Shown one piece after another: positions 9,254 through 47,715 of a stretch of 64,000 nucleotides of DNA (position 1 is its first letter; every line of letters begins with the position of its first letter). Origin of the DNA: Paludibacteraceae bacterium (GTDB lineage Bacteria > Bacteroidota > Bacteroidia > Bacteroidales > Paludibacteraceae); the NCBI GenBank assembly GCA_017467185.1, contig JAFTSS010000085.1:1-64000 (forward strand). The letters run 5' to 3'. Made by a program: the position numbers and the translations under genes. The notes under the pieces were generated by a model. That model saw nothing but the letters and a program-made list of their open reading frames with translations, was not told the origin of the DNA and did no database searches.

Positions 9254-9256
9254 TTG

Positions 9257-9726: not shown

Positions 9727-9754
9727 GTAGAGACGCAAAATTTTGCGTCTCCAC
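9727..9754. repeat. palindromic element gtagagacgcaaaattttgcgtctccac (family GAGACGCAA-N-TTGCGTCTC)
   Basis: Near-perfect inverted repeat in an intergenic region. Confidence 0.7.
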
Positions 9755-9854
9755 TAAAATTTTTTTCATAAAATTAGGGGGAGTGGTCGAAGACCGATGG
9801 GGTTAATACTTGTTATCTGTAATCTGTACTCTATTATCTGTTATTTGTATTATA

Positions 9855-11717
9855 TCAAAGTACTATCTTTTCCACCTCATCACCAACAGCAATCACATAC
9901 ACCCCACGTGGCAATGATAATTGAGCATCACGACCAGTATAAATTAATCGACCATTTACATCAAAGAGTTGATAATCTGCCGACAAACCATCCACATATA
10001 GCACACCGCCCACTGAATATATTGCAATATTTGCATTTTCGGTATTTTCGATTGAAGTATCTTCATCACTTTCTACTACATTGATAAATTCGCCCCAATA
10101 TTCATCATTTGCGTATGCCTCACGAGCTCCTTCTGGCACAATCACAGGGATATTTCTGTTCACATCGAAGAATGTTTTTGCAAAAATAGTTGGAGGCTCG
10201 ATAGCATTCACATTGATTTGTTTCATACGACTACAGAGTGCAAAACAGTTGTCGCCAATGCGTTGTGTAGTCGATGGCAAAGCGAGCGAATCGAGATAAG
10301 TACAACCATAGAATGCCGCATCACCCACTTCGGTTACACCCTCTGGAATTACAAGATTTTCCAACGCATGGCAGTTGTAGAATGCCCAGTTACCGATGCG
10401 TTGCAATGCCACATCGCCATCGGCTGCAGCACGTTTCATGCGCGATGCGAACGATTTAGCCTCAGCTTGACCACCAAATGTGATAGATTTGATAGAACGA
10501 CAATTCTCGAATGCTGCATCATTGATTTCTACCACCGAAGCAGGAATATTTATCTCTTTCAACTGATAGCACTCTGCCATAGCCTTAAATCCAATAGTTT
10601 CGAGATTGCCAGGCAACATCAAGTTCTCCAATTTATAGCAGTCGTAGAATGCCAAGTCGTTGATTGCAGTGTTTGTAGTACCAGCGAGGTCGATAGTATG
10701 AAGCGATTTTTTCGAGCGATTAATATAGTTAAAACCATTCTCATCCAACTCTCCATCAGTGATATGCACCTCAGTCAATTTATTAGAAAATTGGGTTTGA
10801 AATTCTTCCTTAATCGAATTAACCAATTTAGCAGGGCCTTGGAAATAACGAAGGTTTTTAGTTGCGTTAAGAGGATGCCATGTTTCGTCACTAGATTCAT
10901 AAAAATCAAGTTCTACATCATCCCCAAATTCACAAATCAAAGTATCAAGAGAAGAAACCATAGGAATCCATTCATCGCTTTCTTCATCATAAATATTATA
11001 ACAATAAAAAATGCTTTCACCAATATATTTAACTCCACTACCAATTTTTGCATACCTTAATTGCGCACAATCCCTAAAGACTCGTCCTCCAATACAAACT
11101 ACACTATTAGGAATTTCTATTGATGTAAGTCCAGAACATCCCCTAAATGCACTTTCTCCAATAAAAGTTACGCGATTGGGAATTGTGATTGATGTGAGAG
11201 CAGAATAATTATAAAATACATAATCCTTAATAGAGTCAACATCTTCTGGTACAACTACATCTGTTACTTTTTTATTATTTAAATATAAATTTTCTGCATA
11301 GTGTAGGGGGTTAGCAGTACTACAATTCTTAAATTCAATATCAAACCATGCGCCTACATCAAATATATATACATCAACAAGTGAATAACAAGCCAAAAAA
11401 GCATCTCCACCAATAGTTGTTACACTATTTGGGATTGTGATTGAAGTGAGAGATGAACATCTAGAAAATGCAAAATCCCCAATCTCAGTCACACTATATT
11501 CTACACCATTATAGGTTACTTTTTCAGGAATAACAATTTCTGATTGAATATATCCCGCACCATTATCATCCCATAAATACCCCCCATCATTCGTAACAGT
11601 AGCCGTCTTATTCTCATGGTCGAAATCGTAATAGATACCATCGATTTCGGCTTCATAGGCGAATGCCATTGTTGCACTACACAACAATGCAATCAATAAA
11701 AAGTAAATTTTCTTCAT
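9855..11717 (-). CDS. BspA-type leucine-rich-repeat surface protein with T9SS C-terminal sorting domain
   Basis: 620 aa with a signal peptide and repeated IPNSVTxIGxxAFxxCxxL modules (LRR_5/BspA type). The C-terminal approximately 80 aa resemble a Por secretion tail. Confidence 0.7.
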   Translation of the reverse strand: MKKIYFLLIALLCSATMAFAYEAEIDGIYYDFDHENKTATVTNDGGYLWDDNGAGYIQSEIVIPEKVTYNGVEYSVTEIGDFAFSRCSSLTSITIPNSVTTIGGDAFLACYSLVDVYIFDVGAWFDIEFKNCSTANPLHYAENLYLNNKKVTDVVVPEDVDSIKDYVFYNYSALTSITIPNRVTFIGESAFRGCSGLTSIEIPNSVVCIGGRVFRDCAQLRYAKIGSGVKYIGESIFYCYNIYDEESDEWIPMVSSLDTLICEFGDDVELDFYESSDETWHPLNATKNLRYFQGPAKLVNSIKEEFQTQFSNKLTEVHITDGELDENGFNYINRSKKSLHTIDLAGTTNTAINDLAFYDCYKLENLMLPGNLETIGFKAMAECYQLKEINIPASVVEINDAAFENCRSIKSITFGGQAEAKSFASRMKRAAADGDVALQRIGNWAFYNCHALENLVIPEGVTEVGDAAFYGCTYLDSLALPSTTQRIGDNCFALCSRMKQINVNAIEPPTIFAKTFFDVNRNIPVIVPEGAREAYANDEYWGEFINVVESDEDTSIENTENANIAIYSVGGVLYVDGLSADYQLFDVNGRLIYTGRDAQLSLPRGVYVIAVGDEVEKIVL

Positions 11718-12090
11718 AATAATTAAAGTTTTAGTGATTAATATAATTCGTTTTATAAAATAGAGACTATAGGTGAAATAGTAACTATAGGAGCAATAGA
11801 GACTATAGAAACTATAGTAGAGGGGAGATTAAACAGGCGTTAATTTAATATTAGGTGTATCAGGTGGTTATTAAAAATGTACAAATAAAGTGGATGACGG
11901 TTTTTTTCGGCAGAGGTTGTTTGCACCTTCGATAAGGGTAGGTTGTGGATTTAGTTGTACATTTTGACACAAAAAAAACGTGGAATTCGACTGTTGTCGT
12001 TCCACGAACTGAGGCTGTCGCATTGCCTTGAAGTCGGAACAGACAACGCGAAGCCCACGCTGAAATGTATGTATATTTATACCCCTACAG

Positions 12091-12112
12091 GAGACGCAAT
12101 ATATTGCGTCTC
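12091..12112. repeat. palindromic element gagacgcaatatattgcgtctc
   Basis: Perfect 10-bp arms. Confidence 0.7.
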
Positions 12113-12312
12113 TACAGGTATGTACAACATTCCCGTAGGACATCTAACGTTGCAATGCTCTTGACTTCATTAGAAACTGCGACATTTCAGTTCGTCAGAA
12201 CAAAGCGTCGATAAACGCCTATTTATTATTTATATCTTGCGATTCCCACCCGATTGCCCAATCAGCGTGAGTTTCACACCGCAAAGGTAGAAATTATTTT
12301 TGAAATATCCAA

Positions 12313-13251
12313 TTATTCCGAAATAATTTTTACGTTTTCGGCTATTATTGTTTTGTATTTTTCTTTTATTTCGTTTGGTAAGAACGATAGGTCTATCATT
12401 TCATACCATGCAGGAATAGTTTTATTGAATTTTTTGAATATATTGGCAATAGTTTTTTCTTCTAAACCTGAATTTTGCATTGCTATTTCGAAGTCTATTT
12501 TTTTTATCTTCCGTTTTTTGCTATTCAGATTCAATGCCAATTCTTCAGTGTCTTCTGGTAAAACTAATTGTGTTGATAAAAGGTTGTAAGCAGGAGATAA
12601 TATATGTCCGTATCCGATTGGTTTATATAGTGAAAAGTTCTTTAAATGCATATCGGAATTTCCAACTAACCACGAGAATAGAACTATTTCCCAAAATTTG
12701 ATGATGTCTAATTTTGGTACAGATGAATATTTGGCAATTAGTTTCGCTATTTGTTCGTATGACCCTTTATATTTATGCTCTGTTAATCTTTCTGATAATT
12801 GACACATATCTTCCATTGCAAGTTTGTATCCATTGTTTAATCTATCAATGCGACGAGTCAAATAGCAAAGGCGACCATCGGCAATTGGTATCAATGTATG
12901 AGGTACAACGTCAATACCAGATATTTCAGCCAAATGCATAGTTAAATCTTCGATTTCTGGTAGATTGGCATAAATGTCGGTTTGAGGTTTTAATATGTAT
13001 CGTCCCCATAAACCAACAATAGTGAATCTTTTTTCTTTGCTCTCTGTAGTGATATCTAACGAAAGTTTAGCTTGAACCCCAGTTAGTGTGGTTTGACTGC
13101 GAATGACTTCTTCTGCCAATTTGTTTAAATCAGCATGATGAAAATTGGCAATTGGGCACGTTGTATCGTTGAATATTTTTTTTGAACATGTGCGATGAAA
13201 CCCAATTTCGCCATTTTTTAATTCTTTGTAACAATAAAAACATTTAGCCAT
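12313..13251 (-). CDS. HipA-like serine/threonine kinase toxin (HipT-like: kinase core without the HipA N-terminal subdomain, with N-terminal CxxC...HxxC zinc ribbon)
   Basis: 312 aa. It carries the catalytic-loop motif VGNSDMHLKNFSL typical of the HipA family and an N-terminus CFYCYKEL...HRTC. Confidence 0.75.
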   Translation of the reverse strand: MAKCFYCYKELKNGEIGFHRTCSKKIFNDTTCPIANFHHADLNKLAEEVIRSQTTLTGVQAKLSLDITTESKEKRFTIVGLWGRYILKPQTDIYANLPEIEDLTMHLAEISGIDVVPHTLIPIADGRLCYLTRRIDRLNNGYKLAMEDMCQLSERLTEHKYKGSYEQIAKLIAKYSSVPKLDIIKFWEIVLFSWLVGNSDMHLKNFSLYKPIGYGHILSPAYNLLSTQLVLPEDTEELALNLNSKKRKIKKIDFEIAMQNSGLEEKTIANIFKKFNKTIPAWYEMIDLSFLPNEIKEKYKTIIAENVKIISE

Positions 13252-13255
13252 ATCT

Positions 13256-13582
13256 CTATTCTTCTTCTTTTATTTCAATGACACTAATAGCTCCTATGCA
13301 ATCACGGCAACAAGCTAATAATAGCGACATGCGGTCGCGATTGTTTATTTTCCAATTGCGCTCTGCTATATCAAGTAGCCAGCCTTCAGGTATTAAACCA
13401 TCAAAAAATGGGAATAACACTTTGTCGTGGTATGTTTCTTCTTGCAGTGGTAGTGTCAAACTAATTGGTTCGGCATCTGGTTGTACTAGATATTCTTTCT
13501 TGTACTGAAAAGAATAACCATTGTCTGTTTCTCGTAAAATGCCAACTTGTCTGTCTCGTAGATATATATATGCTTGTTTCAT
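13256..13582 (-). CDS. HipA N-terminal-domain protein (HipS-like third component)
   Basis: 108 aa. A 5-nt gap separates it from the kinase gene, and its start overlaps the hipB-like stop. Its length and position match HipS of the HipBST systems. Confidence 0.65.
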   Translation of the reverse strand: MKQAYIYLRDRQVGILRETDNGYSFQYKKEYLVQPDAEPISLTLPLQEETYHDKVLFPFFDGLIPEGWLLDIAERNWKINNRDRMSLLLACCRDCIGAISVIEIKEEE

Positions 13583-13785
13583 TATTTATCTCTATCTTGT
13601 TTGATTGGACCAACTTCGTAACCAAATAGATTTAATACTTGGTTCAATTTGTCAAGACGTAAAGTCTCTTTACCTTGTTCTAAATCACGAATAAAACGTA
13701 ATCCAACTCCTGATTTTTCGGATAAGTCAATTTGTGTTAGGTGATATTGCTTGCGCATTGTTTTTATAAATTCTGCAATTGTCAT
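13582..13785 (-). CDS. XRE-family helix-turn-helix antitoxin (HipB-like)
   Basis: 67 aa containing the HTH LTQIDLSEKSGVGLRFIRDLEQGK. Confidence 0.75.
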   Translation of the reverse strand: MTIAEFIKTMRKQYHLTQIDLSEKSGVGLRFIRDLEQGKETLRLDKLNQVLNLFGYEVGPIKQDRDK

Positions 13786-13806
13786 AGTTGTTTTTTTGTC
13801 GATTAT

Positions 13807-13906
13807 TATACCTTATAGGGTATAATTTATTGTTTAATTATTTATTTTATACCCGAAAAGGTATATTTTTGTTCTTATTTGGTGATATTATACCCGTTCG
13901 GGGTTA
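13807..13906. promoter_or_regulatory. three palindromic operator-like sites TATACC-N6-GGTATA upstream of the hipB-like gene
   Basis: tataccttatagggtata (13807-13824), tatacccgaaaaggtata (13848-13865) and the imperfect tatacccgttcggggtta (13889-13906). Confidence 0.5.
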
Positions 13907-14208
13907 TTTTGTGTTGCAAAGGTAGAAATTATTTTTTGAATATCCAATTATTCTAAAATATTTTTTTATTGGTGGTCTGGTAAAAAATAAAGCAATTATT
14001 CAAACTGTTAATAAACAAAGGGGAGATAAGATAATCTTATGAGAGGGGGAGTTTTTAGTTCGACGTTTTCAACGTCGTAGAGTGTGGGGAGTTTTCTTCT
14101 TCTGCAGGTAATTTTTGCGATATCGCTTCGCTTCTCGCAAAAATCACCCGCAGTTACGCATAATTCGACGTTTTCAACGTCGTTGTATCTTGAATTCTCC
14201 TTAATTTT

Positions 14209-14452
14209 AACGTGAGTTCGATATAACTTTATAGCACACGGAGCCAACGGTCTTGAGCCTTGGCGAAAATGCACAGATGACACGGAGATTTTTCATTACA
14301 TACCCCTCTGTTCAGCAGACATATTGAGCGGACGCACGAGCCGTGCGTCCCTACAATGAGGAGGATTTTTGCCGAATTCGCTCTTTTGCTACGCAAAAAA
14401 CGCTCTACGGATTGTACGGATGCCATACGGCATTTTATATCGAACTGACGTT
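14209..14452 (+). mobile_element. MITE-like element family B, copy 2 (244 bp, 18-bp TIRs, flanked by duplicated TTAATTTTA)
   Basis: TIRs aacgtgagttcgatataa / ttatatcgaactgacgtt. It contains an internal palindrome gacgcacgagccgtgcgtc. Confidence 0.7.
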
Positions 14453-14592
14453 AATTTTATTGTGAAATTATAAATATTTTAATTCGCATAGGTTATTTCG
14501 TTTATATGAATTATCATAATATAATTTTTAGCGGACAGTAATAATTTTTTAATGATGGATATTAGAACTTTGTTTTGAATTTATAGAAATCC

Positions 14593-14632
14593 TTTTACAT
14601 AAACAACGGCTGAACCGCATTGCGATTCAGCC
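14593..14632 (-). terminator. long perfect hairpin aaacaacggctgaa-loop-ttcagccgttgttt downstream of the ppiD-like gene
   Basis: 14-bp perfect stem. There is no strong U-tract, which is common in Bacteroidetes. Confidence 0.4.
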
Positions 14633-14658
14633 GTTGTTTATGTAGGATATTATTTTGA

Positions 14659-16761
14659 TTAATAGTATTTATAGCGCATATCTTCGATGTTAGCAGCTTC
14701 TTTGAGTGCTTCGATTGCGAGATATGGGTTCATGTAAGCTTCGCGAGTTTCGAGCATTACCATTTCTTCTTTTTCGTTGTAAGGTTTAGCAGCTTCTTCT
14801 TTGCTTATTACTTTGAAGATATAAGCTCCTGTGTTACCTTTGATAGGAGCCGATTCTTTATCAACTTCAGCACCTGCTACGCGAGCGAAGAGTGATGGTT
14901 CGTTACCGATTGAACCAGCATAAGTACTTGCGAAGTTGATGTTGCGAACTGTATCAACACGGAAACCTTCAGTTGCGAGTTGATCCATTGTTTTCTTATT
15001 CATTTCAGCAACAAGAATGTCTCCTTTTTTCTCTTTGCGGAGTTCTGATAAAAGTTGTGGACGTACGCTTTCGATTGAGCGATAGCCTTCTTCGTTGTGT
15101 TTGTCAACAGCAACTGCGATGATTTTGTCTTCAACTTCAAAGATGTCGCTGATAGCACCTTCTTTGTTTTCGAAAATCCAACGAACAACTTCGCGTGCTT
15201 TTTTCACGTTGTTGATTTCAGTAGCGTTGATGTCGAGGTTTTTAGCTGTCATCACAACGTAGCCATTGTTTGCAGCTTCAGCTTCGAGTTTTTCGATAGT
15301 GTTGTTATCAACGATAAATTGTTTCATTTTGTTGTAAAGTTCTGCGTGAGTGCGAGATGTAGCATCTACAGTGCGAGCAAGAACTGCAACTTTTGCTTTT
15401 GTAGTTTTTTGTCCAAGTTCGTTAACATAGAAGAGGTTGATGTCGTTGCCTTCTTTTACTTGGAACATATTTTTTGCAGGTGTAGAGAATGCAGGAGTAG
15501 CGATTTTCTTTTCTAAGCCCATTTCGCTTACCCAACCGATTTCGCCACCATTAGCTGCGTTTTGGAGAAGTGAGTGAGTTTTTGCTAATTCTGCGAAAGA
15601 TGCACCTTTTTTCACTGCATCCATAATGCTATCAGCTAAAGCTTGAGTAGCTTCGGCTGTTTCGCGGCGGAGATACATGTTGCTCAAATTAACAGAGTCA
15701 ACTGATGCGATGCCGTTTTCAACGATGCGAGCCATTTTGTATGTGTTGTCAACAAAAATAGGACCCATAACATCGCCTGCTTTGCCTGTAAATGCAAATT
15801 CTTGGAAGTCAGCATCAATTTGCTCTTTAACCAAGTTTTCGCCACGATATTGTACGTCAGAATTTGAGTTTACTACAGCTGCGATGTCTTCAGTTGCAGA
15901 GAATTCGTCTTTTAAATTGTTGATCCATTTTTCAACTTCAGCAAAATCTTCAGCCGATGGTTTGATGTCAACAACGATATATTTAACGTCAGCAGATTGT
16001 TTTTGTTTGAATTGTTCTTTTTTCTTATTGTAGAGAGCTTTGATTTCTGCATCAGATACGTTGATTGTTGAGTCAGCAATAGCGAAATAGTTTTTCATTG
16101 CATACACAGCATCAGCCGATACTTTTGCATTGTCGTAAGCATATTTAGCTTCTAATTGGTTTACAACCAAAGCTGCATTCAATAAGTTAGTGTATTTTTC
16201 TTGGAGACGATTAGTTTTGATTGCGTGCTCCCAATAACGCCAATAGTTACGATAGAGACGGAGTTGCTCGTAAGGGATGTTTTGAGTAGCTTCTTCGCTG
16301 TCGAGCATAGCGATGAATTGTTTTACTACATTAACATCGAATTGACCATTTTCGTTGAAGAACATTTGGTTGTTCATCATCATTGGGCTGATGTTGTTGC
16401 CAACGAGCATGTCAGCCAATTCGTTTTTAGTTACAGTCATACCGATATTTTCGCATTCGTCGCCAATAACTTTTTCGGTTACAGTGCTTTCCCATACCAT
16501 TTGACGGATTTGTTCTGTCATTTCGTCATTGATGTTGTTGCCATATTGCAATTTTACTACATCATTGAATTGGTCCATTGTTTCGGCATAGTCGCGAATT
16601 TTAACTTTGTCGCCATTGATAACAGCTACGTTTGCGCTGTTTTCTTGGAAATAAGTTGAACCTGAATTAACCAAGTCTCCTACGATGAAGACCACCAAAG
16701 CCAAACCTACTACAATTAAGAGTAAGAGACCTTTACTTCTAATTTTTTCTAATGTTGCCAT
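14659..16761 (-). CDS. ppiD: PpiD/SurA-like periplasmic chaperone, peptidyl-prolyl isomerase family
   Basis: 700 aa with an N-terminal membrane anchor followed by a large periplasmic region. This architecture is characteristic of Bacteroides PpiD. Confidence 0.7.
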   Translation of the reverse strand: MATLEKIRSKGLLLLIVVGLALVVFIVGDLVNSGSTYFQENSANVAVINGDKVKIRDYAETMDQFNDVVKLQYGNNINDEMTEQIRQMVWESTVTEKVIGDECENIGMTVTKNELADMLVGNNISPMMMNNQMFFNENGQFDVNVVKQFIAMLDSEEATQNIPYEQLRLYRNYWRYWEHAIKTNRLQEKYTNLLNAALVVNQLEAKYAYDNAKVSADAVYAMKNYFAIADSTINVSDAEIKALYNKKKEQFKQKQSADVKYIVVDIKPSAEDFAEVEKWINNLKDEFSATEDIAAVVNSNSDVQYRGENLVKEQIDADFQEFAFTGKAGDVMGPIFVDNTYKMARIVENGIASVDSVNLSNMYLRRETAEATQALADSIMDAVKKGASFAELAKTHSLLQNAANGGEIGWVSEMGLEKKIATPAFSTPAKNMFQVKEGNDINLFYVNELGQKTTKAKVAVLARTVDATSRTHAELYNKMKQFIVDNNTIEKLEAEAANNGYVVMTAKNLDINATEINNVKKAREVVRWIFENKEGAISDIFEVEDKIIAVAVDKHNEEGYRSIESVRPQLLSELRKEKKGDILVAEMNKKTMDQLATEGFRVDTVRNINFASTYAGSIGNEPSLFARVAGAEVDKESAPIKGNTGAYIFKVISKEEAAKPYNEKEEMVMLETREAYMNPYLAIEALKEAANIEDMRYKYY

Positions 16762-16960
16762 TTTTTTATTTATATTATTTGTTTTTTATTTTTGTTTTGT
16801 GTTTGTGTTATTGTGCTGATATATAGCAAAATATGTGCAAAATATGACCCATTTGTGCCCTATTTTACATGATAATTTTTCAAGATGCGAAGTTACGAAA
16901 AAAGTTTATATATACGAAATATTTTGTAATAAAATTTATAAAGTATTTATTGTTAGTGTA

Positions 16961-18226: not shown

Positions 18227-18233
18227 TATTATT

Positions 18234-18690
18234 TAGTTTAGAGTTAAAAGTTTAGAGTTAAGAGTTAAGAGTTAAGAGTTTAGAGTTAAGAGTTAAGAGT
18301 TTAGTGTTTAGAGTTAAGAGTTAAGAGTTTAGTGTTTAGGGTTAAGAGTTTAGTGTTTAGAGTTAAGAGTTTAGTGTTTAGAGTTTAGTGTTTAGAGTTA
18401 AGAGTTTAGCGTTTAGAGTTAAGAGTTAAGAATTAAGAATTAAAAATTAAAACATTTAATTCCACATTCCACATTCCTCACTCCTCATTCCTCACTCCTC
18501 ATTCCTCATTCCTCATTCCCCATTCCTCATTCCCCATTCCTCATTCCCCATTCCTCATTCTCCATTCCTCATTCCCCATTCCTCATTCCACATTCCACAT
18601 TCCACATTCCTCATTCCTCATTCCCCATTCCTCATTCCACATTACTCATTCCACATTACTCATTCCACATTCCACATTCCTCATTCCTCA
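18234..18690 (+). repeat. two abutting heptamer microsatellite arrays, about 31 x (GAGTTAA/GAGTTTA/GTGTTTA) then about 33 x (CATTCCT/CATTCCA/CATTCCC)
   Basis: Direct inspection. The arrays fill the whole gap between the lptC-like stop and the gldE-like start. Confidence 0.9.
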
Positions 18691-19265: not shown

Positions 19266-19288
19266 AAGTTGTTGAATAGTAAAAAATA

Positions 19289-19335: not shown

Positions 19336-19349
19336 AATATCTAAAAAAG

Positions 19350-24868: not shown

Positions 24869-25037
24869 AGTAATTTTCAATTTTTGCGTTAAGCGAGAGC
24901 AATGAAAATTATTTCAATTGCCGAGTGGAGCAAAAATCACGACCGAAGGGAGTAATTCTCAATTTTTGCGATAAGCGAGAGCAATGAAAATTATTTCAAT
25001 TGCCGAGCGGAGCAAAAATCACGACCGAAGGGAGTAA
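24869..25037 (+). repeat. tandem duplication of an approximately 84-bp unit (aattttcaatttttgcgttaagcgagagcaatgaaaattatttcaattgccgag...gaagggagta)
   Basis: Two copies about 93% identical. They are flanked by (TAGTTAT)4 on the left and (AACACTC)n on the right. Confidence 0.8.
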
Positions 25038-25140
25038 CTCTCCAACTCTAAACACTCAACACTCAACATTCAACACTCAACACTCAACACTCAACACTCA
25101 ACTCTAAACACTAAACTCTCAACACTAAACTTTATATATT

Positions 25141-27094: not shown

Positions 27095-27180
27095 TTTGAA
27101 ATTTTAAATTTGAAATTTTAAATCTTCGTTATGATTTTCAACTTTCAACTTTCAATTTTCAATTTTCAACTTTAAACGTA

Positions 27181-31630: not shown

Positions 31631-31700
31631 TAGTTTTTTTATAATTTCTATAGCCACTATAGCTACTATAGCCACTATAGTTTCTATAGCCACTATAACT
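31631..31700 (+). repeat. nonamer array (CTATAGCCA/CTATAGCTA)x~6 upstream of cvpA
   Basis: Direct inspection. The same family occurs at 47706-47790, 42141-42170 and 11745-11830. Confidence 0.8.
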
Positions 31701-32310: not shown

Positions 32311-33241
32311 CTAATCAGCGTTTTTCATATCTATTGAATATTTTAGTCCAATGCGAAATTCATGATATTGCCAATCTTTAATGCCGTATTGATAGGCGAC
32401 GTATGGTTCTAATCCGTATGGGCAAGGAATGCCAATTTTTGTTTTTAATGTCATAGGTTTATCTCCATTATTTTGCCAGCCTATATAACCTCCCCATTCT
32501 GTGATTAGTCGTAAATATAGAGCTTCAAATTCAGCCCTTAATCCATACATGTAGGCATCGTTTTGTTCTGCTCGTCCTGTTTGCCAGCAATAGAATCCGA
32601 TTGACCCAGAAAGACTAAATGATTTTGCCCATTTATTTTCCCAATTTATTTTTTCGGCGAGTGCTAAATCTAAGAAGTATCCTGGAGCATCAATGAATCT
32701 TTTATTCTCAAAATTTCCTCCCGATGCTGTTTTTATGCCTATTCTAACAACTGCCGAAGGTATATATGGTGATGATTTTTTGAACCATTGGTGGTGCAAG
32801 ACTTGAATATTAGTGCTTACATAAATATCTCCAGCAACATTATGCCAATTATTTCGTGTCTCGTATCTCGTATCTCGTGTCTCGTATCTCGTGTCTCATG
32901 TCTCGTGTCTTTTTTTTTGAATAAAAATCCATTACCGAATACCAAGCCTCCAAATTTACCCAACGTGTAAAAAGAGGTATATTCAATCGTAGATTTGGTG
33001 TAAAAGTATTGCTTTGGTCAAATCCTCTAAAGTAACTTCCTGATATTTCTACTGAAAATTTATCTGAAGTTTCTCCCGACGACATCTCTATCACTGGCAA
33101 CGCATTGGGCCCCCACGGCATCTCTTGTCCCCACCCAAACAACGAAAAAAACAAAGCGCAACCTACGAGGCATAACCTCATACATTGCGCTTTAATATTT
33201 AGTTTGTAAGTCATAAGATTATGAGTTAATTTAACTTTCAA
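32311..33241 (-). pseudogene. outer-membrane protein gene split into two frames at a (TGTCTCG)~7.5 heptamer array plus T9 tract (32857-32918); candidate phase-variable or disrupted gene
   Basis: The upstream ORF (33241-32849, with signal peptide) ends inside the array. The downstream ORF (32799-32311) is open through the array in the other frame. Confidence 0.5.
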
Positions 33242-35057: not shown

Positions 35058-35060
35058 ATT

Positions 35061-35205
35061 ATAGATTTTTAGTAGCGAGTAGCGAGTAGCAAGACCTTTT
35101 GTACTCGGCTTCGCCTCGTTAGTCTTTATAGATTTTTAGTAGCGAGTAGCGAGTAGCAAGACCTTTTGCACTCGGCTTCGCCTTATTCGTATTATAGTAG
35201 CGATT
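35061..35205 (+). repeat. tandem duplication of an approximately 72-bp unit containing (TAGCGAG)3, immediately upstream of argS
   Basis: Units 35061-35133 and 35137-35205 are about 95% identical. Confidence 0.8.
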
Positions 35206-35313: not shown

Positions 35314-35386
35314 GAGCCACATTGGGGACTCGAACCCCAGACCTACTCATTACGAATGAGTTGCTCTACCAACTGAGCTAATGTGG
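35314..35386 (-). tRNA. tRNA-Thr (anticodon CGT)
   Basis: 73 nt. The cloverleaf folds manually (acceptor GCCACAT/ATGTGGC, D-arm GCTC-AGTTGGTA-GAGC, anticodon loop TTCGTAA, T-arm TGGGG-TTCGAGT-CCCCA). No CCA is encoded. Confidence 0.85.
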
Positions 35387-35396
35387 CAAGGTTATT

Positions 35397-37762: not shown

Positions 37763-37766
37763 AAAA

Positions 37767-38987: not shown

Positions 38988-39055
38988 ATATTTTTTTTCG
39001 GTTTTTAGAAATTTTGTGTATCTTTGCACTATTAAAACCGCAAAAAATATCTTTT

Positions 39056-39538
39056 ATGAAAAAATTGTATTTATTATTGAATTTTGTCTTGGCATTCACT
39101 ATTATGGCGAAAGCCGAGACTTCTTTATTTATTGATTATCTTTCTGATGACGATGCCGAAATAGCATTAAATGTAATTGGTCGCATCGAAATTAAAGATG
39201 AAGTTTTCCGTCTTATTAGTGTTGAGGGAACCGAATTAGCCTCTTGTAATCTTTATGAAGTGAAAAAAATTTCATTTGTCAAAAACTCTACTGAGACTAA
39301 CCTTGTTGATAATAACTCTAATTCTATAGTTATTTTTCCTAATCCAACACAAGAAGTTTTATTTATCAATGGTTTAGAATCTAACGATAAGGTTCGTTTG
39401 TTCGACCTTCAAGGTAAATTGATTTTAACATCTGTTGCCGATACTGATGGTAATTTGCAAGTGTCAGTGTCGCAACTGCCTGACGGAGTTTATCTTCTTC
39501 AAGTAGGAGTAGAAATAATGAAATTTGTTAAACAGTAA
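39056..39538 (+). CDS. small secreted protein with T9SS C-terminal sorting domain
   Basis: Signal peptide, with a Por_Secre_tail-like C-terminus (VIFPNPTQEVLFI...GVYLLQV). Confidence 0.5.
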   Translation: MKKLYLLLNFVLAFTIMAKAETSLFIDYLSDDDAEIALNVIGRIEIKDEVFRLISVEGTELASCNLYEVKKISFVKNSTETNLVDNNSNSIVIFPNPTQEVLFINGLESNDKVRLFDLQGKLILTSVADTDGNLQVSVSQLPDGVYLLQVGVEIMKFVKQ

Positions 39539-39546
39539 AACTAATC

Positions 39547-40626: not shown

Positions 40627-40687
40627 TTACTCATTCCTTAGGTTTTGGAGAGCAATGTAGCTTACTTTAGTTGCTGGTGAAAAATAA

Positions 40688-42142
40688 TTCCTCATTCATC
40701 ATTCCTCATTCCTCATTTTTAATATTTTTACCTTCATATTTTCAATCATTCTTCTCGTATTAGGCTATGTAGTATATGGTCGCATAGTCGCTCGAGTTTT
40801 TGGTGCAGACTCCAATCGTGTAACACCAGCCATAGCCAATCCCGATGGTGTTGACTATGTATCAATGCCATGGTGGAAAATTTTCCTTATTCAATTTCTT
40901 AATATTGCAGGGCTTGGACCTATTTTTGGCGCAATTATGGGAATCATGTTTGGTCCATCTGCATTTCTTTGGATTGTATTTGGCTCTATATTTGGTGGTG
41001 CTGTACATGATTATCTTTCGGGTATGTTGTCTATGCGACGCAATGGTGCATCATTGCCTGAATTAGTGGGTGAACAACTCGGTATGGGGGTTAAGCAATT
41101 TATGCGCGTTTTTTCGCTTTTGTTGATGGTGCTTGTTGGTGCTGTTTTTGTAAGCGGTCCTGCAGGTTTGCTTGCTGGTATGGTGAAATCTATTAGCGTT
41201 ACTTGGTGGATTGTAATTATTTTCGGCTATTATATGCTTGCAACTTTGCTCCCTATCGATAAACTCATTGGTAAAATCTATCCATTGTTCGGATTTGCTC
41301 TACTTTTTATGGCTGTAGGTATTTTGGTTTCTTTGTTTATTAACAACGCACCAATACCTGAAATTACATCTGGACTTGCAAGCCAACATCCACAAGGTTA
41401 TTCAATTTTTCCAATGATGTTTGTCTCTATTGCATGTGGGGCAGTCTCTGGTTTTCATGCTACTCAGTCGCCTATGATGGCACGCTGTATGACGAATGAA
41501 AAATATGGTCGTCCATGTTTTTATGGAGCTATGATTGCCGAAGGCATTGTTGCTCTTATTTGGGCAGCAGCAGCCTCTTCGTTCTTCGGTTCAGTTGGTG
41601 GATTGCAAGAGTATGTTGCCTCTTTACCTGCTACTGCAAACAAGGCTGCTGAGGTTGTTAATCTTATATCTAACACTTGGTTAGGTAAATTTGGTGGTAT
41701 TTTGGCCGTGTTGGGTGTTGTGGCTGCTCCTATTACTTCGGGCGATACAGCTCTCCGTTCAGCTCGCCTTATTGCTGCCGATTTTTTACATATTGATCAA
41801 AAACCAATTCTTAAGCGTCTTATGGTGGCAGTACCTCTTTTCGTGGGTACATTCATATTATTACAAATCAATTTTGATGTAATTTGGCGTTATTTTGCTT
41901 GGAGCAATCAAACACTTTCTGTCTTTACTTTTTGGGCATTGACAGTATATCTTTATAAGGAAAAACGTTGTTATTGGATAACTTTAATTCCTGCTCTATT
42001 TATGACTGCTGTATGTTCTGCCTATATTATGGTTGCCCCAGAAGGTTTCGGTCTCCCACTATATATAGGCTATATCGTCGCCGCAGTTGTTTGTATAGTT
42101 TTTACTCTTTTATTTATTCGTTTCACAAAAAATAAACTATAG
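40688..42142 (+). CDS. cstA: carbon starvation protein CstA; no canonical start, and the 5' end overlaps the (TTCCTCA)n array
   Basis: CstA homology (LGYVVYGRIVARVFGADSNRVTPAIANPDGVDYV...) starts upstream of the first ATG (40865) and runs back to the stop at 40685 inside the heptamer array. Confidence 0.7.
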   Translation, partial: FLIHHSSFLIFNIFTFIFSIILLVLGYVVYGRIVARVFGADSNRVTPAIANPDGVDYVSMPWWKIFLIQFLNIAGLGPIFGAIMGIMFGPSAFLWIVFGSIFGGAVHDYLSGMLSMRRNGASLPELVGEQLGMGVKQFMRVFSLLLMVLVGAVFVSGPAGLLAGMVKSISVTWWIVIIFGYYMLATLLPIDKLIGKIYPLFGFALLFMAVGILVSLFINNAPIPEITSGLASQHPQGYSIFPMMFVSIACGAVSGFHATQSPMMARCMTNEKYGRPCFYGAMIAEGIVALIWAAAASSFFGSVGGLQEYVASLPATANKAAEVVNLISNTWLGKFGGILAVLGVVAAPITSGDTALRSARLIAADFLHIDQKPILKRLMVAVPLFVGTFILLQINFDVIWRYFAWSNQTLSVFTFWALTVYLYKEKRCYWITLIPALFMTAVCSAYIMVAPEGFGLPLYIGYIVAAVVCIVFTLLFIRFTKNKL

Positions 42143-42214
42143 CTACTATAGTTCCTATAGGTTCTATAATTCCTCATTCCTCATTTCTCATTTCTCATTT
42201 CTCATTCCTCATTC
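42141..42214 (+). repeat. nonamer (CTATAGNNC) then heptamer (CATTCCT/CATTTCT)x7 array immediately 5' of the helicase start
   Basis: Direct inspection. Confidence 0.8.
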
Positions 42215-44728
42215 TTGATAATGTCTATTTACGAAATTGCCGAAGAATTTATTCAGTTGACTAATTGCTCTGTTTTCCTGACAGGTAAAGCTGGTACGGG
42301 TAAGACTACTATGCTTCGGCAGATTCGTGATGTGGCATTCAAGCAAACAGCCGTTGTTGCTCCTACTGGTGTGGCGGCTATCAATGCTGGTGGTACGACA
42401 ATTCATTCCTTTTTTCAACTCCCTTTTTCTCCATTTATACCTACTATTGAGGCAAAAAAATCGTTTATTGCAAAGCAACAGGTCAATAATGTTCGCCGTA
42501 AAATATATCGCGAGCTCGAATTGCTTATCATCGACGAGGTTTCTATGGTGCGTGCCGACGTACTTGATGCAATTGACACAGTATTACGTCATTATCGTTT
42601 CCGCCCAAATGAGCCATTTGGGGGAGTCCAAGTAGTTTTCATTGGCGACATGTACCAATTGCCTCCTGTCTGCGTGGGTGAAGAGTGGGATCTATTGCGT
42701 CGTTATTACGAAACACCATATTTCTTTCATTCTCAAGTCATTCGTCAAGATCCCCCGATATATATCGAACTTGATAAAATTTTTCGTCAAAGCAATCAGC
42801 AGTTTATCAATTTGCTTAACGAAGTTCGCAATAATCAGCTTACTCCCGACACTTTCCGCTTGCTGAATCATTGTTATCAGCCTAATTTTCGTAATGTTGA
42901 TGAATATATCACTCTCACAACGCATAATGCCTCTGCCGATGCAATCAACAATGACGAATTAGCAAAAATCGATGCACCATATTATAAATTTATGGCTCAT
43001 ATCGACCGCGATTTTCCTGAACGAATTTTCCCAACCGAGATAGAACTTATCCTTAAATTAGGCGCAAAAGTCATGTTCATTGCCAATGACATGGCTCAAC
43101 CTCGTCGTTATTATAATGGAAAAATTGGTGAAATCACCGAGATAAATAATAATGAAATTTGGGTTACATGTGAAGGTGAAACAGAGGCGATTAAAGTCTC
43201 GCTCGAAGTGTGGGAAAACAAGTCCTATACTATCGACCCTAAAACCAATCAGATAGAAGAAAAACTTTTGGGTACTTTTACTCAATATCCTCTGCGTTTG
43301 GCTTGGGCTATTACTATTCACAAAAGTCAAGGTCTTACATTTGATAGGGTAGTGATTGATGCTGCCGCAGCCTTTGCTTCTGGGCAGGTTTATGTCGCAT
43401 TATCGCGTTGTCGCTCATTAGATGGAATTGTTTTAACCTCTCAAATCAACCCTAATTCCCTTGCTGTTGACCCTCAAATTGTGCGGTATAGCGAGCAGCG
43501 TCTGCCTATTGTTGAGCTTGAGCGTCAAGTTGAATTATTTAAATCTCGTTATAGTATTCAACTTCTTGCTAAGTTGTTTAGCCTCGAAGATTTAATGTCG
43601 CATACATTCAGTTTTGTAAATTATATCAAAACTGTTTTAGATGATTTCAACGAAGATACTGCGCCTTATCTCGATGAAATATTAAAACGTGTGAATGATT
43701 TATATGCTGTAGCACAACGTTTTGTGGCACAACTTTTATCTTTCAATCCTAAATTAGACATAGTTCGTATTGCTGAACGTGTAAAAGCTGCTTCTGGCTA
43801 TTTTGTTCCTCAACTTGATGATTTATTGGTTCTTATAGAATCATCTCCTGCTATAACCGAAAGCAAAGTAGAGGCTCAAGATTATATTGATCGTTTACAA
43901 GCTGTGTTTGAAATTGCGTCACAACTTCGTCATATCATTGCGGGCATTGCCGATGATATCTCCGTAATTAACTATTTCGATGTAAAACAGTCATATAAAG
44001 TTCCGCCGTTTAAGGTGAAAGCCTACGTTGTAGAACGTGAAGTGAAGATGTTAAAGACCGAGCATCCAAAACTTTATAAAATGCTTGCTACTTGGCGTAA
44101 TGAGTATTGCAAAGAGAATAACATTCCTGCATTTCAAATGTTTAGCAATGCTACTTTGGTCGAAGTATCAAATCGTCTTCCTATCGAATTAGAGTCGCTA
44201 ATTAAAATTAAAGGTTTTGGAAAAATAAAAATCCAACGATTTGGTAAAGAGTGTGTTGATATTGTGCGAATTTATTGTCGTGAAAATGGTATCGATGCCT
44301 CATCTCAGTCTGATATTGCTTTTGAATCAGAGTCTGATTATGGTAATGCCGCAGAAGAAGGTAGAGACGCAATAAATTGCGTCTCAAAAAACAAGAAAAG
44401 TAGGCGCAAGGAAAAAGAAAAAATAGAAAAAATACCAACCAAAGAAATAACGTTATCTCTTATTAATCAGGGAAAAACGTTACAAGAAATTGCCGACGAA
44501 CGAAGTCTTGTTTTAAGTACGATCTACACTCATTTGGCAAAACTCATACATGCAAAAAAAATCGACATCGCTCAATATGTCGATATCGATTTATTGGATA
44601 GGGTTATGTTGGTTCTCAATGAAACCCCTGAAATTTCTAATTCTGAACTATTCGAACGCCTCGAAGGTTCTGTAACATACGATGAATTAAAACTTATTCG
44701 AGCTCATCAACTTTCAAGTAATAATTAG
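42215..44728 (+). CDS. Pif1/RecD-like SF1B DNA helicase with C-terminal HRDC-like and HTH domains
   Basis: Walker A LTGKAGTGKTT, with helicase motifs throughout the first 450 aa. An HRDC-like region lies at aa 640-700 and a C-terminal HTH follows. Confidence 0.7.
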   Translation: MIMSIYEIAEEFIQLTNCSVFLTGKAGTGKTTMLRQIRDVAFKQTAVVAPTGVAAINAGGTTIHSFFQLPFSPFIPTIEAKKSFIAKQQVNNVRRKIYRELELLIIDEVSMVRADVLDAIDTVLRHYRFRPNEPFGGVQVVFIGDMYQLPPVCVGEEWDLLRRYYETPYFFHSQVIRQDPPIYIELDKIFRQSNQQFINLLNEVRNNQLTPDTFRLLNHCYQPNFRNVDEYITLTTHNASADAINNDELAKIDAPYYKFMAHIDRDFPERIFPTEIELILKLGAKVMFIANDMAQPRRYYNGKIGEITEINNNEIWVTCEGETEAIKVSLEVWENKSYTIDPKTNQIEEKLLGTFTQYPLRLAWAITIHKSQGLTFDRVVIDAAAAFASGQVYVALSRCRSLDGIVLTSQINPNSLAVDPQIVRYSEQRLPIVELERQVELFKSRYSIQLLAKLFSLEDLMSHTFSFVNYIKTVLDDFNEDTAPYLDEILKRVNDLYAVAQRFVAQLLSFNPKLDIVRIAERVKAASGYFVPQLDDLLVLIESSPAITESKVEAQDYIDRLQAVFEIASQLRHIIAGIADDISVINYFDVKQSYKVPPFKVKAYVVEREVKMLKTEHPKLYKMLATWRNEYCKENNIPAFQMFSNATLVEVSNRLPIELESLIKIKGFGKIKIQRFGKECVDIVRIYCRENGIDASSQSDIAFESESDYGNAAEEGRDAINCVSKNKKSRRKEKEKIEKIPTKEITLSLINQGKTLQEIADERSLVLSTIYTHLAKLIHAKKIDIAQYVDIDLLDRVMLVLNETPEISNSELFERLEGSVTYDELKLIRAHQLSSNN
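44361..44385. repeat. palindromic element gtagagacgcaataaattgcgtctc embedded in-frame in the helicase gene (encodes GRDAINCVS)
   Basis: Perfect 10-bp arms located in an inter-domain linker. Confidence 0.7.
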
Positions 44729-44899
44729 TCTTTTGTCCTATCATATTCTCCCCCTGTTTTAGGGGGAACTGACGCAGGAGAGAGAGCAGGACCAAGCCCG
44801 CTTGAGTTATGCCGAGCGACAAGGAAGTCGCCGAAGGCAATACCCGAAGGGGGAGGGGGTTCGACTATTGACTATTGACTATTGACCATTGACTATAGA

Positions 44900-45502
44900 C
44901 TATAAACTATCGTCTGTCGCTCGTTTTTTCATCTCTTCATTGTAGCAATGGCGGCAAATAGGCTCATATTTGTCAGTTTCACCCAATAATACTTGAGATT
45001 CGCCGGCAACTAAACGATGTGAAACGTATGCTGGAGCGCCACAACGTACGCATACAGCATGTACCTTTTGTATGTCATCAGCAATAGCCATCAATGCAGG
45101 CATTGGTCCGAATGGAGTGCAACGGAAGTCCATATCCAATCCCGCAATAATCACGCGATAACCGCTTTCTGACAATTTGCGGCATACGTCAACAATTCCA
45201 TTATCAAAAAATTGGGCCTCATCAATGCCTATAACATCAACATCACCAGCCATCAATAAAATATTTTGCGACGATTCTACTGGTGTCGATTGTATTGCAT
45301 TATGGTCATGGCTAACAACTTCAGTCTCTGAATAGCGGGTATCTATACAAGGCTTAAATATTTCAACTCTTTGTTTTGCAAATTTTGCACGTTTCAATCT
45401 GCGGAGCAACTCTTCTGTTTTTCCTGAAAACATAGACCCACAAATTACTTCTATACTTCCACGATGAGGACAACTGCAGTTAGCTGATTCAAAAAAATAC
45501 AT
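44900..45502 (-). CDS. tdk: thymidine kinase
   Basis: 200 aa with the P-loop [11 protein letters not shown] and zinc-ribbon cysteines CVRCG...CRHC. Confidence 0.85.
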
Positions 45503-45651
45503 ATATTATTGTTTTTTATTCGTAAAAAATTCGTACCTTTGTATTTGTAAAAATGAAGTAAGCTCAATATTTAAATTATGTAGAGGAGACCCATTTTTGC
45601 CATGCAAAGTTACAAAATAAATTTTAATAAAAATCATATTTTTCTTACAAA

Positions 45652-46617
45652 ATGAACAAAGAAGTTTTAGTTGCACTTATAGCAAAGGATGTCAATGAAT
45701 TACAAACTCTCACTGAAGGTCTTGATCAAATGGAGACTATTCCAGCACCTTATCTTCGTCTTGCTTTGGATAAGTCAAAAGCATTGACTACGAATCTTGA
45801 TAATCTTATCAATTATTTGAATAATAAAGAATTAGAGGACGCTGCAGAAGCTCAACGTCAGGCTGAATTAGAGGCTGCAAGAGCCGAAGAAGAAGCACGT
45901 AAAGCCGAAGAAGAAGCACGTAGAGTCGAAGAAGAAGCACGTAGAGCAGAGGAAGAAGCACGCCAAGCCGAATTAGCACGTATTGCCGAAGAGCAAGAAG
46001 CTTTGCTTCGAGCTCAAGAACTCGAACGTGAGCGTCAAGCTGAGGAACGCCGTAAAGCTGAAGCTGAAATTGCTCGACAAGTTGCCGCACTTGAAGCTGC
46101 CCGTCAATTAGAACTTGAAGAAAAAAGTCGTGTCTGCAACGAGCAAAACGAAGCAGAAAATAAAATAACGATGGAAACTTCAGAGGAAAAATCTATAGCC
46201 TCTACAGAAAATATAGATTCTATAGCTCCTACAGCTCCTGTAGAAACTACTGCTCCCACAACCTCAATCGTTGGTGCCATAGCCGAAAATCAACCTCAAA
46301 CATTAGCAGAATCCATCGAAACATCAGAATCCTTAGCCGATAAACTTGCAAAAACTGCTGATGATACTCTTGCTGAAGTTATTAACAATAAAAAAATAAT
46401 AGATTTAAAATCATCTATAACTCTTGGCGACCGTTTCCGTTTCCAACGCGAATTATTTGGTGGTAATGGCGAAAAAATGAATAAAGCAATATCTGACTTT
46501 AATTCATTTGAAACTATGACCGAAGCTCAATCTTATATAGCTAAAAACTTCGATTGGCCATTAGACAACGATGCTGTATCTGATTTCATTCAACTCCTTC
46601 AACGCCGCTATTTGTAA
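45652..46617 (+). CDS. hypothetical coiled-coil protein with in-frame 24-bp (8-aa EEARRAEE) tandem repeats
   Basis: 321 aa. Four or five repeats of gaagaagaagcacgtaga-like units fall at 45890-45985. Confidence 0.4.
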   Translation: MNKEVLVALIAKDVNELQTLTEGLDQMETIPAPYLRLALDKSKALTTNLDNLINYLNNKELEDAAEAQRQAELEAARAEEEARKAEEEARRVEEEARRAEEEARQAELARIAEEQEALLRAQELERERQAEERRKAEAEIARQVAALEAARQLELEEKSRVCNEQNEAENKITMETSEEKSIASTENIDSIAPTAPVETTAPTTSIVGAIAENQPQTLAESIETSESLADKLAKTADDTLAEVINNKKIIDLKSSITLGDRFRFQRELFGGNGEKMNKAISDFNSFETMTEAQSYIAKNFDWPLDNDAVSDFIQLLQRRYL

Positions 46618-46689
46618 TAAATATTTCAGAACTAAAGTAGGGACACGGCATGCCGTGTCCGTTGTTAAATGGAATAAAAACACTTAATT

Positions 46690-46942
46690 ACGTCAGTTCG
46701 ATATAAAAATCCGTATGGTATCCGTGTAATCTGTAGAACTATTTTTGCGTAGTAAAAGAGCGAATTCAGCCAAAATCCTTCTCAACGTAGGGACGCACGG
46801 CTCGTGCGTCCGCTTAATATGTCTGTAGAACGGAGGGGTATGTGATAAAAAAATCGTGTTATCCGTGCATTTTTCGCCAAGGCTCAAGACCGTTGGTTCC
46901 GTGTGAGATAAAAGTTATATCGAACTCTCGTTAATTATGAAT
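46690..46942 (-). mobile_element. MITE-like element family B, copy 3 (inverted orientation, flanked by duplicated TTAATTA)
   Basis: About 85% identical to copy 2 over the whole length, with the same 18-bp TIRs. Confidence 0.7.
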
Positions 46943-46950
46943 TTTGAATT

Positions 46951-47715
46951 ATGAATTGTGCATTATATTTAGTTCCTACCCCTGTAGGCAATCTCGAAGA
47001 CATAACATATCGTGCCTTACGAATTCTAAAGGAGGTGAATCTTGTGCTTGCCGAAGATACTCGCACTACGGGTATCCTTTTCAAACATTTTGATATTCAC
47101 ACTCCTATGGCATCGCATCACAAATTCAACGAACATAAAACCATAGCACATTTTGCCGATCGCATTCTCGCTGGCGAATCCATAGCATTAGTTAGCGATG
47201 CTGGCACTCCTGCAATTTCTGACCCTGGTTTTATGCTTGTGCGTGAGTGCGTTGCTCGTGGCATTAGAGTAGAGTGCCTCCCTGGAGCTACAGCTTTTGT
47301 ACCCGCATTAGTCGATTCAGGCTTGCCAACCGATCGTTTCTGTTTCGAAGGATTCTTGCCACAGAAAAAAGGCAGACAAACCAAATTACAATTGCTTATT
47401 TCTGAAGATCGTACAATGATTTTCTACGAATCCCCATACCGACTTGTAAAAACACTCCAACAATTTGCTGAAGTCTTTGGCTCAGAACGTCAAGCATCAG
47501 TTTCACGCGAAATATCTAAAATGTTCGAAGATACACAACGTGGTACGCTACAACAGCTTATCGAACATTTTACAGCCATACCACCCAAAGGCGAAATCGT
47601 AATTGTAGTAGCTGGAGCTAGTAGAGACGCAATACATTGCGTCTCAACAGGCGAAGATAAAGATGAAGAACAAGACCTCGCAAAAATCCGAAAATCCAAA
47701 AAACATAGATTATAG
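46951..47715 (+). CDS. rsmI: 16S rRNA (cytidine1402-2'-O)-methyltransferase
   Basis: 254 aa with N-terminus LYLVPTPVGNLEDITYRALRIL. It carries a C-terminal in-frame palindromic-element insertion. Confidence 0.85.
   Translation: MNCALYLVPTPVGNLEDITYRALRILKEVNLVLAEDTRTTGILFKHFDIHTPMASHHKFNEHKTIAHFADRILAGESIALVSDAGTPAISDPGFMLVRECVARGIRVECLPGATAFVPALVDSGLPTDRFCFEGFLPQKKGRQTKLQLLISEDRTMIFYESPYRLVKTLQQFAEVFGSERQASVSREISKMFEDTQRGTLQQLIEHFTAIPPKGEIVIVVAGASRDAIHCVSTGEDKDEEQDLAKIRKSKKHRL
47621..47645. repeat. palindromic element gtagagacgcaatacattgcgtctc embedded in-frame near the 3' end of rsmI (encodes SRDAIHCVS)
   Basis: Perfect 10-bp arms. Confidence 0.7.

Follow-up and report, generated by a model that had tools for sequence, protein, structure and literature searches.

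In Escherichia coli, repetitive extragenic palindromes (REPs) join a GTAG guide to a hairpin and are handled as single-stranded DNA by an HUH/Y1 enzyme, the REP-associated tyrosine transposase (RAYT, also called TnpA-REP or YafM; PDB 4ER8). Closest to the locus considered here are the REPs of TnpA-REP subclass 2.4, which occurs abundantly among Cyanobacteria and Bacteroidetes and has REPs of both the canonical long and the "double foot" form (Quentin et al. 2018, PMC6006769). The same authors found that REPs lying in frame within the tnpA-REP gene, between HuH and Y, are unique to this subclass. In this study, we analyzed a 64-kb stretch (the window, at its full length) of a Paludibacteraceae genome (assembly GCA_017467185.1, contig JAFTSS010000085.1, positions 1 to 64,000), which contains eight short hairpins with a GTAG foot, two of them in frame within protein-coding genes. 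These hairpins are very probably GTAG-class REPs of the canonical long or double-foot form, of the type that goes with RAYT/TnpA-REP subclass 2.4.

The GTAG and CGTC super-families were defined by Di Nocera et al. 2013 (PMC3733652), who reported GTAG repeats from Proteobacteria, Cyanobacteria, Chloroflexi, and the Planctomycetes-Verrucomicrobia-Chlamydiae group, and only CGTC repeats, which have no known dedicated transposase, from Bacteroidetes. In their survey, REPs lay mostly downstream of open reading frames (ORFs), some families occurred mostly as single units, and intragenic copies were found, many in replication/repair genes, including helicases, and in AcrB-type genes. Cleavage and strand transfer have been demonstrated only for three TnpA-REP/REP pairs (Corneloup et al. 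2021, PMC8266576), which come from E. coli, S. maltophilia, and Marinomonas and include perfect palindromes. Earlier work had thus already described this element family and its transposase, as well as the double-foot form and copies in frame inside genes, and our analysis leaves the picture of REPs and RAYTs unchanged. It extends the record of in-frame GTAG REPs to a Bacteroidales PIF1-type helicase and RsmI.

GTAG-footed hairpins in the window

The window has a base composition of 36.5% GC, and its neighbor genes include SusC/SusD genes and genes with type IX secretion system (T9SS) tails. Together with RsmI homologues, these genes assign the window to a Paludibacteraceae-like Bacteroidales genome. 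Its sequence recurs in several metagenome assemblies at 99.9% identity. Including 7 kb beyond the end of the window, 71 kb of this genome was read. The eight hairpins were grouped into three related types: A, GTAGAGACGCAAnnnnTTGCGTCTC(TAC), with four copies; B, GTAG(G/T)GGACGCAC...GTGCGTCC, with three copies, two of them within a repeat of ~250 nt that resembles a MITE (a miniature transposable element with inverted repeats); and C, GTAGGGACACGGCATGCCGTGTCC, with one copy. The copies and the two genes that host them are as follows.

854 to 883, plus strand: REP of type B, variant GTAGTGGACGCACAACTCGTGCGTCCACTA, with a 12-bp stem in a divergent intergenic region (-14.4 kcal/mol, z = -8.5)
9727 to 9754, plus strand: REP of type A with a double foot, GTAG...CCAC (GTGG on the minus strand), ~100 nt 3' of a leucine-rich repeat (LRR) gene (-10.4 kcal/mol, z = -6.5)
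12088 to 12115, minus strand: intergenic REP of type A with one foot only (GTAG), flanked by the LRR gene and a HipA_C gene
14326 to 14354, minus strand: REP of type B, GTAGGGACGCACGGCTCGTGCGTCC, in MITE copy 1 (~14207 to 14456)
42221 to 44728, plus strand: PIF1-family helicase gene with HRDC and HTH_40 domains (Pfam scan of the translation), host of an in-frame REP
44361 to 44385, plus strand: REP of type A in the helicase linker, encoding (G)RDAINCVS, within a 33-nt lineage-specific insertion
46637 to 46660, plus strand: REP of type C, intergenic, 20 nt past the upstream stop codon
46787 to 46811, plus strand: REP of type B in MITE copy 2 (~46686 to 46934)
46951 to 47715, plus strand: rsmI, 16S rRNA C1402 2'-O-methyltransferase gene (TP_methylase at amino acids 5 to 203), with a REP in the C-terminal tail
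47621 to 47645, plus strand: REP of type A in frame in rsmI, where it encodes (S)RDAIHCVS within the acidic C-terminal tail

The original prediction for this DNA had described a 25-nt palindromic element that sits both between genes and in frame inside them. All four of its copies (9727 to 9754, 12091 to 12112, 44361 to 44385, and 47621 to 47645) are present with 0 to 2 mismatches to GAGACGCAATAnATTGCGTCTC, and the intragenic ones encode RDAI(N/H)CVS as described, the helicase copy as GRDAINCVS and the rsmI copy as SRDAIHCVS. A search of the window for this pattern, allowing 0 to 2 mismatches, returned 9730 to 9751, 12091 to 12112, 44364 to 44385, and 47624 to 47645, compared with a chance expectation of 0 in 100 dinucleotide-preserving shuffles. 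The repeat therefore stands, but what recurs is more accurately a hairpin at whose foot GTAG is found, in many cases together with a second foot, CTAC, for a length of 28 nt. For the 12091 copy, the GTAG is found on the minus strand, at 12115. The related variant GGACGCAC...GTGCGTCC was also recovered, at 854 to 883 and in both ~250-nt repeats, and type C at 46637 to 46660 adds a third form to the two that had been recognized.

Scanning the window for GTAG next to a perfect hairpin yielded 8 matches, compared with ~0.9 expected. The hairpins are G+C rich, their stems are perfect and 9 to 12 bp long, the loops comprise 2 to 5 nt, and GTAG abuts the hairpin foot in every copy. Folded as single-stranded DNA, the eight hairpins reached -8.9 to -14.4 kcal/mol (z scores of -3.9 to -8.5), and none of 200 shuffles folded as well as any of them. 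Their loops are A+T rich (AATT, TATA, TAAA, and TACA), in keeping with the 36.5% GC of the genome. Overall, the density is 8 copies per 71 kb (~1 per 9 kb), with six of the copies outside confirmed genes; no further REPs lie between 48 and 71 kb.

On the minus strand, 9726 to 9755 reads as a hairpin of 13 pairs and a TTTTTT tail, ~100 nt past the LRR gene, and it ranks first among terminator-like sites in 600 to 15000. Judged by this arrangement, co-option of the 9727 copy as an intrinsic terminator for the LRR gene is plausible. The leading position of this site among terminator-like sequences in 14 kb, just 3' of a gene, could also be taken to mean that the hairpins in general are host regulatory elements (terminators, mRNA stabilizers, or protein-binding sites) that are under selection and not mobile, and so could the short distance between the type C copy and the preceding stop codon, given that REPs mostly lie 3' of ORFs (PMC3733652). 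We regard this as very unlikely. It leaves unexplained the in-frame coding copies, the same 22-nt core with a GTAG foot in many phyla together with its association with RAYT genes, and the presence and absence of copies between relatives of ~90% identity, whereas co-option of a single copy fits mobile REPs as well. At gathering thresholds, Rfam models matched only tRNA-Thr in the window, and no RNA family was found over the hairpins.

A 90-amino-acid ORF at 11871 to 12143, which overlaps the REP at 12088 to 12115 and matches no family, is probably spurious, an example of the small ORFs that such repeats create. A HipBA-like toxin-antitoxin module of three genes (HTH_3, Couple_hipA, and HipA_C; 12313 to 13790, minus strand) adjoins the same REP. 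At 3024 to 3040, ACTTTTGCGTCCCTAC resembles the 3' half of the type B REP (GTGCGTCCCTAC) without a partner arm and may be a decayed copy.

Comparison with described REP families

The subclass 2.4 REPs in Table S1 of PMC6006769 include GTAGAGACGCAATGCATTGCGTCTCTAC, GTAGAGACGCACGGCCGTGCGTCTCTAC, GTAGGGACGCACTGCGTGCGTCC, and GTAGGGACACTCTGCGTGTGTCC. Since these are near-identical to the window types, all three types had already been catalogued. REPs of this type are G+C-rich palindromes of 20 to 40 nt with the GT[AG]G tetranucleotide 0 to 2 nt 5' of the hairpin foot. The window copies share with this subclass a GT[AG]G foot at a 9- to 12-bp hairpin, an optional second foot, C[TC]AC, on the 3' side, near-identical sequences (GTAGAGACGCAATGCATTGCGTCTCTAC, GTAGGGACGCACTGCGTGCGTCC, and GTAGGGACACTCTGCGTGTGTCC), occurrence in Bacteroidota, and intragenic in-frame copies, including those in the RAYT gene. 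They differ in their A+T-rich loops, in being all singletons, and in having no cognate RAYT within 71 kb. In full-text literature, "GTAGAGACG" matched nothing but primers of no relevance to REPs.

Similarly to the window copies, GTAG REPs of Opitutus terrae and other bacteria (PMC3733652) can be short, in frame, and encode 7 to 8 residues. Their intragenic hosts include helicases, AcrB-type proteins, and RNA-modifying enzymes, to be compared with a PIF1-type helicase and an rRNA methyltransferase here; their stems and peptides have other sequences than those of the window. The REPs of E. coli, by contrast, are imperfect and bulged, extragenic, and mostly arranged in bacterial interspersed mosaic element (BIME) clusters, whereas those of the window are perfect and short, resembling the second group of Corneloup et al. 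2021 (PMC8266576). A CGTC-tagged REP was rejected because CGTC lies in the paired stem (GCGTCTC), the unpaired tag is GTAG, and there is no CCA tail. [quoted passage not shown]

Distribution across species and reading frames

To follow the repeat beyond this genome, one genome per species was scanned for exact matches to GAGACGCAAnnnnTTGCGTCTC, a query that does not cover the feet. The 22-nt core of type A was found at at least 120 loci in species of many phyla. By record titles and the phyla assigned from them, the hosts include Bacteroidota, Chloroflexota, Planctomycetota, Acidobacteriota, Myxococcota, and Desulfobacterota, members of the candidate phyla radiation such as Gracilibacteria and Parcubacteria, Melioribacteraceae (Ignavibacteriota), Turneriella (Spirochaetota), Proteobacteria, and others. 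Among the 151 copies at these loci, GTA was present on the 5' side in 94 and TAC on the 3' side in 95, with both in 56 and neither in 18, so that 133 of the 151 carry at least one foot. As the feet recur although they lie outside the query, the unit consists of GTAG and the hairpin, with or without CTAC. In addition, 13 pairs in other genomes form close inverted doublets with their feet facing outward. The census that had been proposed as a check on the motif thus found it to be very widespread and, as described below, tied to RAYT genes.

In other genomes, 28 of 152 copies sit within long open frames. The encoded peptide was RDAxxCVS in 14 (one of them GDAKFCVS), ETQxxASL in 13, and ERRKALRLY in a single case, which means that 27 of the 28 use one of two reading frames. 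The third frame of the GTAG foot contains TAG. The five in-frame hosts that were checked are bona fide genes, encoding a sulfatase, two AcrB-family transporters, a peptidase U32, and PurL. This frame pattern fits a selection filter under which only in-frame, stop-free insertions in tolerant segments persist. Lineage-specific short peptides (RDAxxCVS or VETQxxASL) arise in this way in otherwise conserved proteins, and homology searches can be misled because unrelated proteins share an identical 8-mer. A second, degenerate REP-like stretch was seen close to the REP in the PurL gene.

Association with RAYT genes

All ORFs of the census loci were searched by phmmer with a sequence of E. coli YafM/RayT whose HUH and Y regions agreed with the 4ER8 alignment. 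Four RAYT-like ORFs touch or contain the repeat (L011, L052, L081, and L107). In L011, REP doublets lie to either side of the RAYT-like gene (1255 to 1965, minus strand), an arrangement known as a REPtron. In L081, a REP lies in frame inside the RAYT-like gene (199 to 792, minus strand). These ORFs align to E. coli TnpA-REP (PDB 4ER8) over the HUH and Y motifs and match the NCBIfam model REP_Tyr_transpos with an E value of ~1e-15, which is below its trusted cutoff. Strict pattern matching to the HUH and Y motifs missed the RAYT genes of the census loci that phmmer recovered.

The RAYT-like family has ~8000 database members at an E value of 1e-10 or less, and some of the listed hits are labeled RayT by the JGI. 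The REP peptide is in frame in 83 of the 120 best RAYT homologues (P0243 to P0359 among the proteins). A RAYT gene that carries its own REP in frame may explain why the gene and the repeat have traveled together across phyla.

Copies in the helicase linker and the rsmI tail

Pfam placement agrees with the position that had been given for the helicase copy, between HRDC (amino acids 619 to 684) and HTH_40 (amino acids 742 to 829). Relatives of both host proteins were then compared. The insertion in the helicase measures 33 nt (11 codons) and is longer than the 25-nt palindrome. Its 11 residues are missing from 17 aligned relatives of 83 to 92% identity (P0126 to P0138, P0140, P0141, P0143, and P0147), and the empty site is visible in the DNA of the relative L124, which reads GGCGACGA followed directly by AAAACC where the window has 33 additional bases, including the REP. 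The REP is intact in the L126 helicase (88% identity), which is a mosaic that matches the window near-exactly around the REP, with few substitutions, and is diverged upstream. A decayed copy, GCAGAGACGCAATAGATTCTGTTTC, occupies the site in L127, and P0146 has a partial deletion there.

Four helicases that are 95 to 96% identical to the window protein (P0122 to P0125) nevertheless have a different insert at the REP position. This insert contains a decayed type C REP, which reads GTGGGGACACGGCATATCATGTCC in L125 and encodes SRDTASHVRS in P0123 and P0125. Comparison of the L125 linker (~12100 to 12200) with the window (44330 to 44400) therefore sets a decayed type C REP with extra codons against a type A REP. 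Two REP subfamilies in one helicase linker of near-identical strains are mildly unusual, and the reuse of this linker provides a concrete, if small, case of where REPs land.

Most Bacteroidales RsmI orthologues end at 222 to 225 amino acids. In the clade of the window, RsmI ends in a conserved basic segment (DLAKIRKSKKHR), and the acidic stretch before it is variable. The REP falls within this stretch in the window protein and P0042. Slightly decayed forms occur in L126 (GTAAAGACGCAATGAATTGCGTC) and P0054 (SKDAVRSES). The other close relatives have an unrelated acidic sequence of almost the same length there, their proteins comprising 251 to 253 amino acids compared with 254 for the protein with the REP, and the net gain from the REP amounts to 1 to 3 residues. 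Such a replacement-like state is mildly unusual. The 8 to 9 extra residues that had been predicted for these genes do not hold exactly in either one, the difference being 11 amino acids in the helicase and ~1 to 3 in RsmI.

In both genes, the REP-encoded residues are restricted to a subset of close relatives of at least 82% identity. The REP peptide was found in no helicase orthologue and in no RsmI orthologue below 82% identity. The idea of a REP-like palindrome that ORFs can harbor and still remain intact is thus borne out by the orthologue comparison as well as by the cross-species census.

Presence and absence extend to intergenic copies. Over 19 kb of synteny with L124, a relative of ~90% identity, no GTAG hairpin was found in L124, compared with four in the window, so that REPs can serve as strain markers. 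The region upstream of rsmI in L124 has neither the type C REP nor the MITE, and the type C copy of 46637 to 46660 is also missing at the orthologous site in L126.

Origin and turnover of the copies

By analogy with the studied systems, we propose that an HUH/Y1 enzyme (RAYT), the product of a single-copy gene at another place in this genome, would bind the folded hairpin on single-stranded DNA, read the GTAG guide, and cleave and rejoin the strand, by which a REP would be copied to a new place. Most intragenic insertions would be lethal or frame-breaking and would be lost. Those that survive would be a multiple of three bases long, avoid the TAG frame, and fall in disordered linkers or tails, here the linker between HRDC and HTH_40 of the PIF1-type helicase and the acidic tail of RsmI, where they would then undergo slow mutational decay. 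Intergenic copies may be co-opted, as considered above for the 9727 copy.

Several observations weigh against this interpretation. There is no RAYT gene in the window or in the next 7 kb. The family to which the sequences belong, their link to RAYT genes elsewhere, the differences between lineages, and the decay are seen in the data, whereas mobilization by a RAYT of this genome is inferred. The RAYT homologues score 57 to 58 bits, compared with an NCBIfam trusted cutoff of 80. No inverted doublets (REPINs or BIMEs), which are frequent in the family but not required, occur in the window, where all eight copies are singletons. In the helicase, the insertion includes 8 to 9 bases beyond the REP, and its junction shows no defined target site; the rsmI copy looks like a same-length replacement and not a clean insertion, so it does not reveal a target site either. 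Contigs of the same strain (99.9% identical, with the same window proteins) showed no polymorphism at any REP site, and sequences of such near-identical strains thus lend no support to recent movement.

These observations could also be accounted for if the hairpins were fossil REPs, inherited or recombined in and now decaying, with homologous recombination and deletion producing the pattern of presence and absence and no active RAYT involved. The 71 kb without a RAYT, the decayed copies in L127, L126, L125, and P0054, the singleton state of the window copies, the contigs without polymorphism, and the mosaic L126 helicase all point in this direction. However, the stems of all eight window copies are perfect over 9 to 12 bp, which argues for recent origin or selection, and three subfamilies coexist. 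Moreover, a RAYT is normally single copy, so its absence from 71 kb says little. We consider a purely fossil origin improbable and favor REPs mobilized by a RAYT of this genome.

The two host genes raise a further possibility. The type A REP in the helicase linker of the window in place of a decayed type C REP at 96% identity, taken together with the same-length swap in rsmI, could mean that turnover is nonrandom and replacing. We hypothesized that REP or hairpin sites already in place are the targets of RAYT strand transfer, or of template switching at hairpins, with replacement of the sequence there, and that a RAYT gene with its own REP could seed a new genome. This is speculative and, on balance, we doubt it. 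If it were true, short peptide segments in DNA- and RNA-handling enzymes would turn over like cassettes, and transfer of the RAYT gene alone, seeding REPs, would explain the 22-nt core across many phyla.

MITE-like and other repeats

The MITE-like repeat of ~250 nt is present at 14207 to 14456 (minus strand) and 46686 to 46934 (plus strand) as inverted copies of 87% identity, with a partial copy at 5308 to 5375. Judged by eye, its terminal inverted repeats are ~23 nt long (TTAATTACGTCAGTTCGATATAA and TTATATCGAACTCTCGTTAATTA), and a type B REP lies in the center of each full copy. The repeat is missing from the orthologous intergenic region of L124 and L126 and is expanded or nested in L125.

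Miniature transposons of other kinds offer a last comparison. Correia elements, or Neisseria miniature insertion sequences (NEMIS), are MITEs of 100 to 155 bp with ~26-bp terminal inverted repeats and a target-site duplication, and the insert of Rickettsia palindromic element 1 (RPE-1) is ~100 to 150 bp and confined to Rickettsia. If the hairpins were of this sort, a classical DDE transposase would move them via terminal inverted repeats. Their palindromic, dispersed nature and their tolerance in ORFs, as known from Rickettsia RPEs, are in line with such a view, and two type B copies do ride in a real 250-nt MITE with ~23-nt terminal inverted repeats. Against it, the unit is a single hairpin of 25 to 28 nt with a GTAG guide, no target-site duplication is visible at the helicase or intergenic junctions, and the associated gene encodes an HUH/Y1 enzyme and not a DDE transposase. 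This explanation is hardly credible.

The likeness to REP-like, Correia-like, or Rickettsia RPE elements that had been suggested accordingly holds for REPs only, the other two being 100 to 155 bp long compared with a hairpin of 25 to 28 nt. Assignment to Correia/NEMIS was rejected on the size and single-hairpin form of the unit and the lack of a duplication when filled and empty junctions were compared. With Rickettsia RPEs, which are palindromic repeats tolerated in frame in essential genes, the window copies have only this in-frame tolerance in common; RPE-1 is far longer and occurs in a different phylum, whereas the inserts here are 25 to 33 nt long and the host belongs to Bacteroidales.

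Short tandem repeats of 7 or 9 nt fill many intergenic regions (for example, ATTCCTC, 33 units; AGTTAAG, 30 units; TATAGCAAC, 7.6 units), with arrays at 18235 to 18690, 9262 to 9360, 25043 to 25130, 27134 to 27177, 31648 to 31697, 32854 to 32910, 42169 to 42214, 44863 to 44903, and 47711 to 47778. In L124, the array that follows rsmI has another number of units and another sequence. A 253-nt unit is tandem duplicated at 4471 to 4966 (98% identity), and a third, partial copy lies 2.2 kb away at 6948 to 7152 (80 to 93%). Two intergenic tandem duplications were also noted, one at 24869 to 25042 (82-nt unit, 2.1 copies) and one at 35059 to 35192 (67-nt unit, 2 copies), the latter next to tRNA-Thr(CGT) at 35314 to 35387. 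Finally, two adjacent paralogous Peptidase_M6 genes, at 55525 to 58455 and 58526 to 60955, share stretches of 72 to 76% nucleotide identity.

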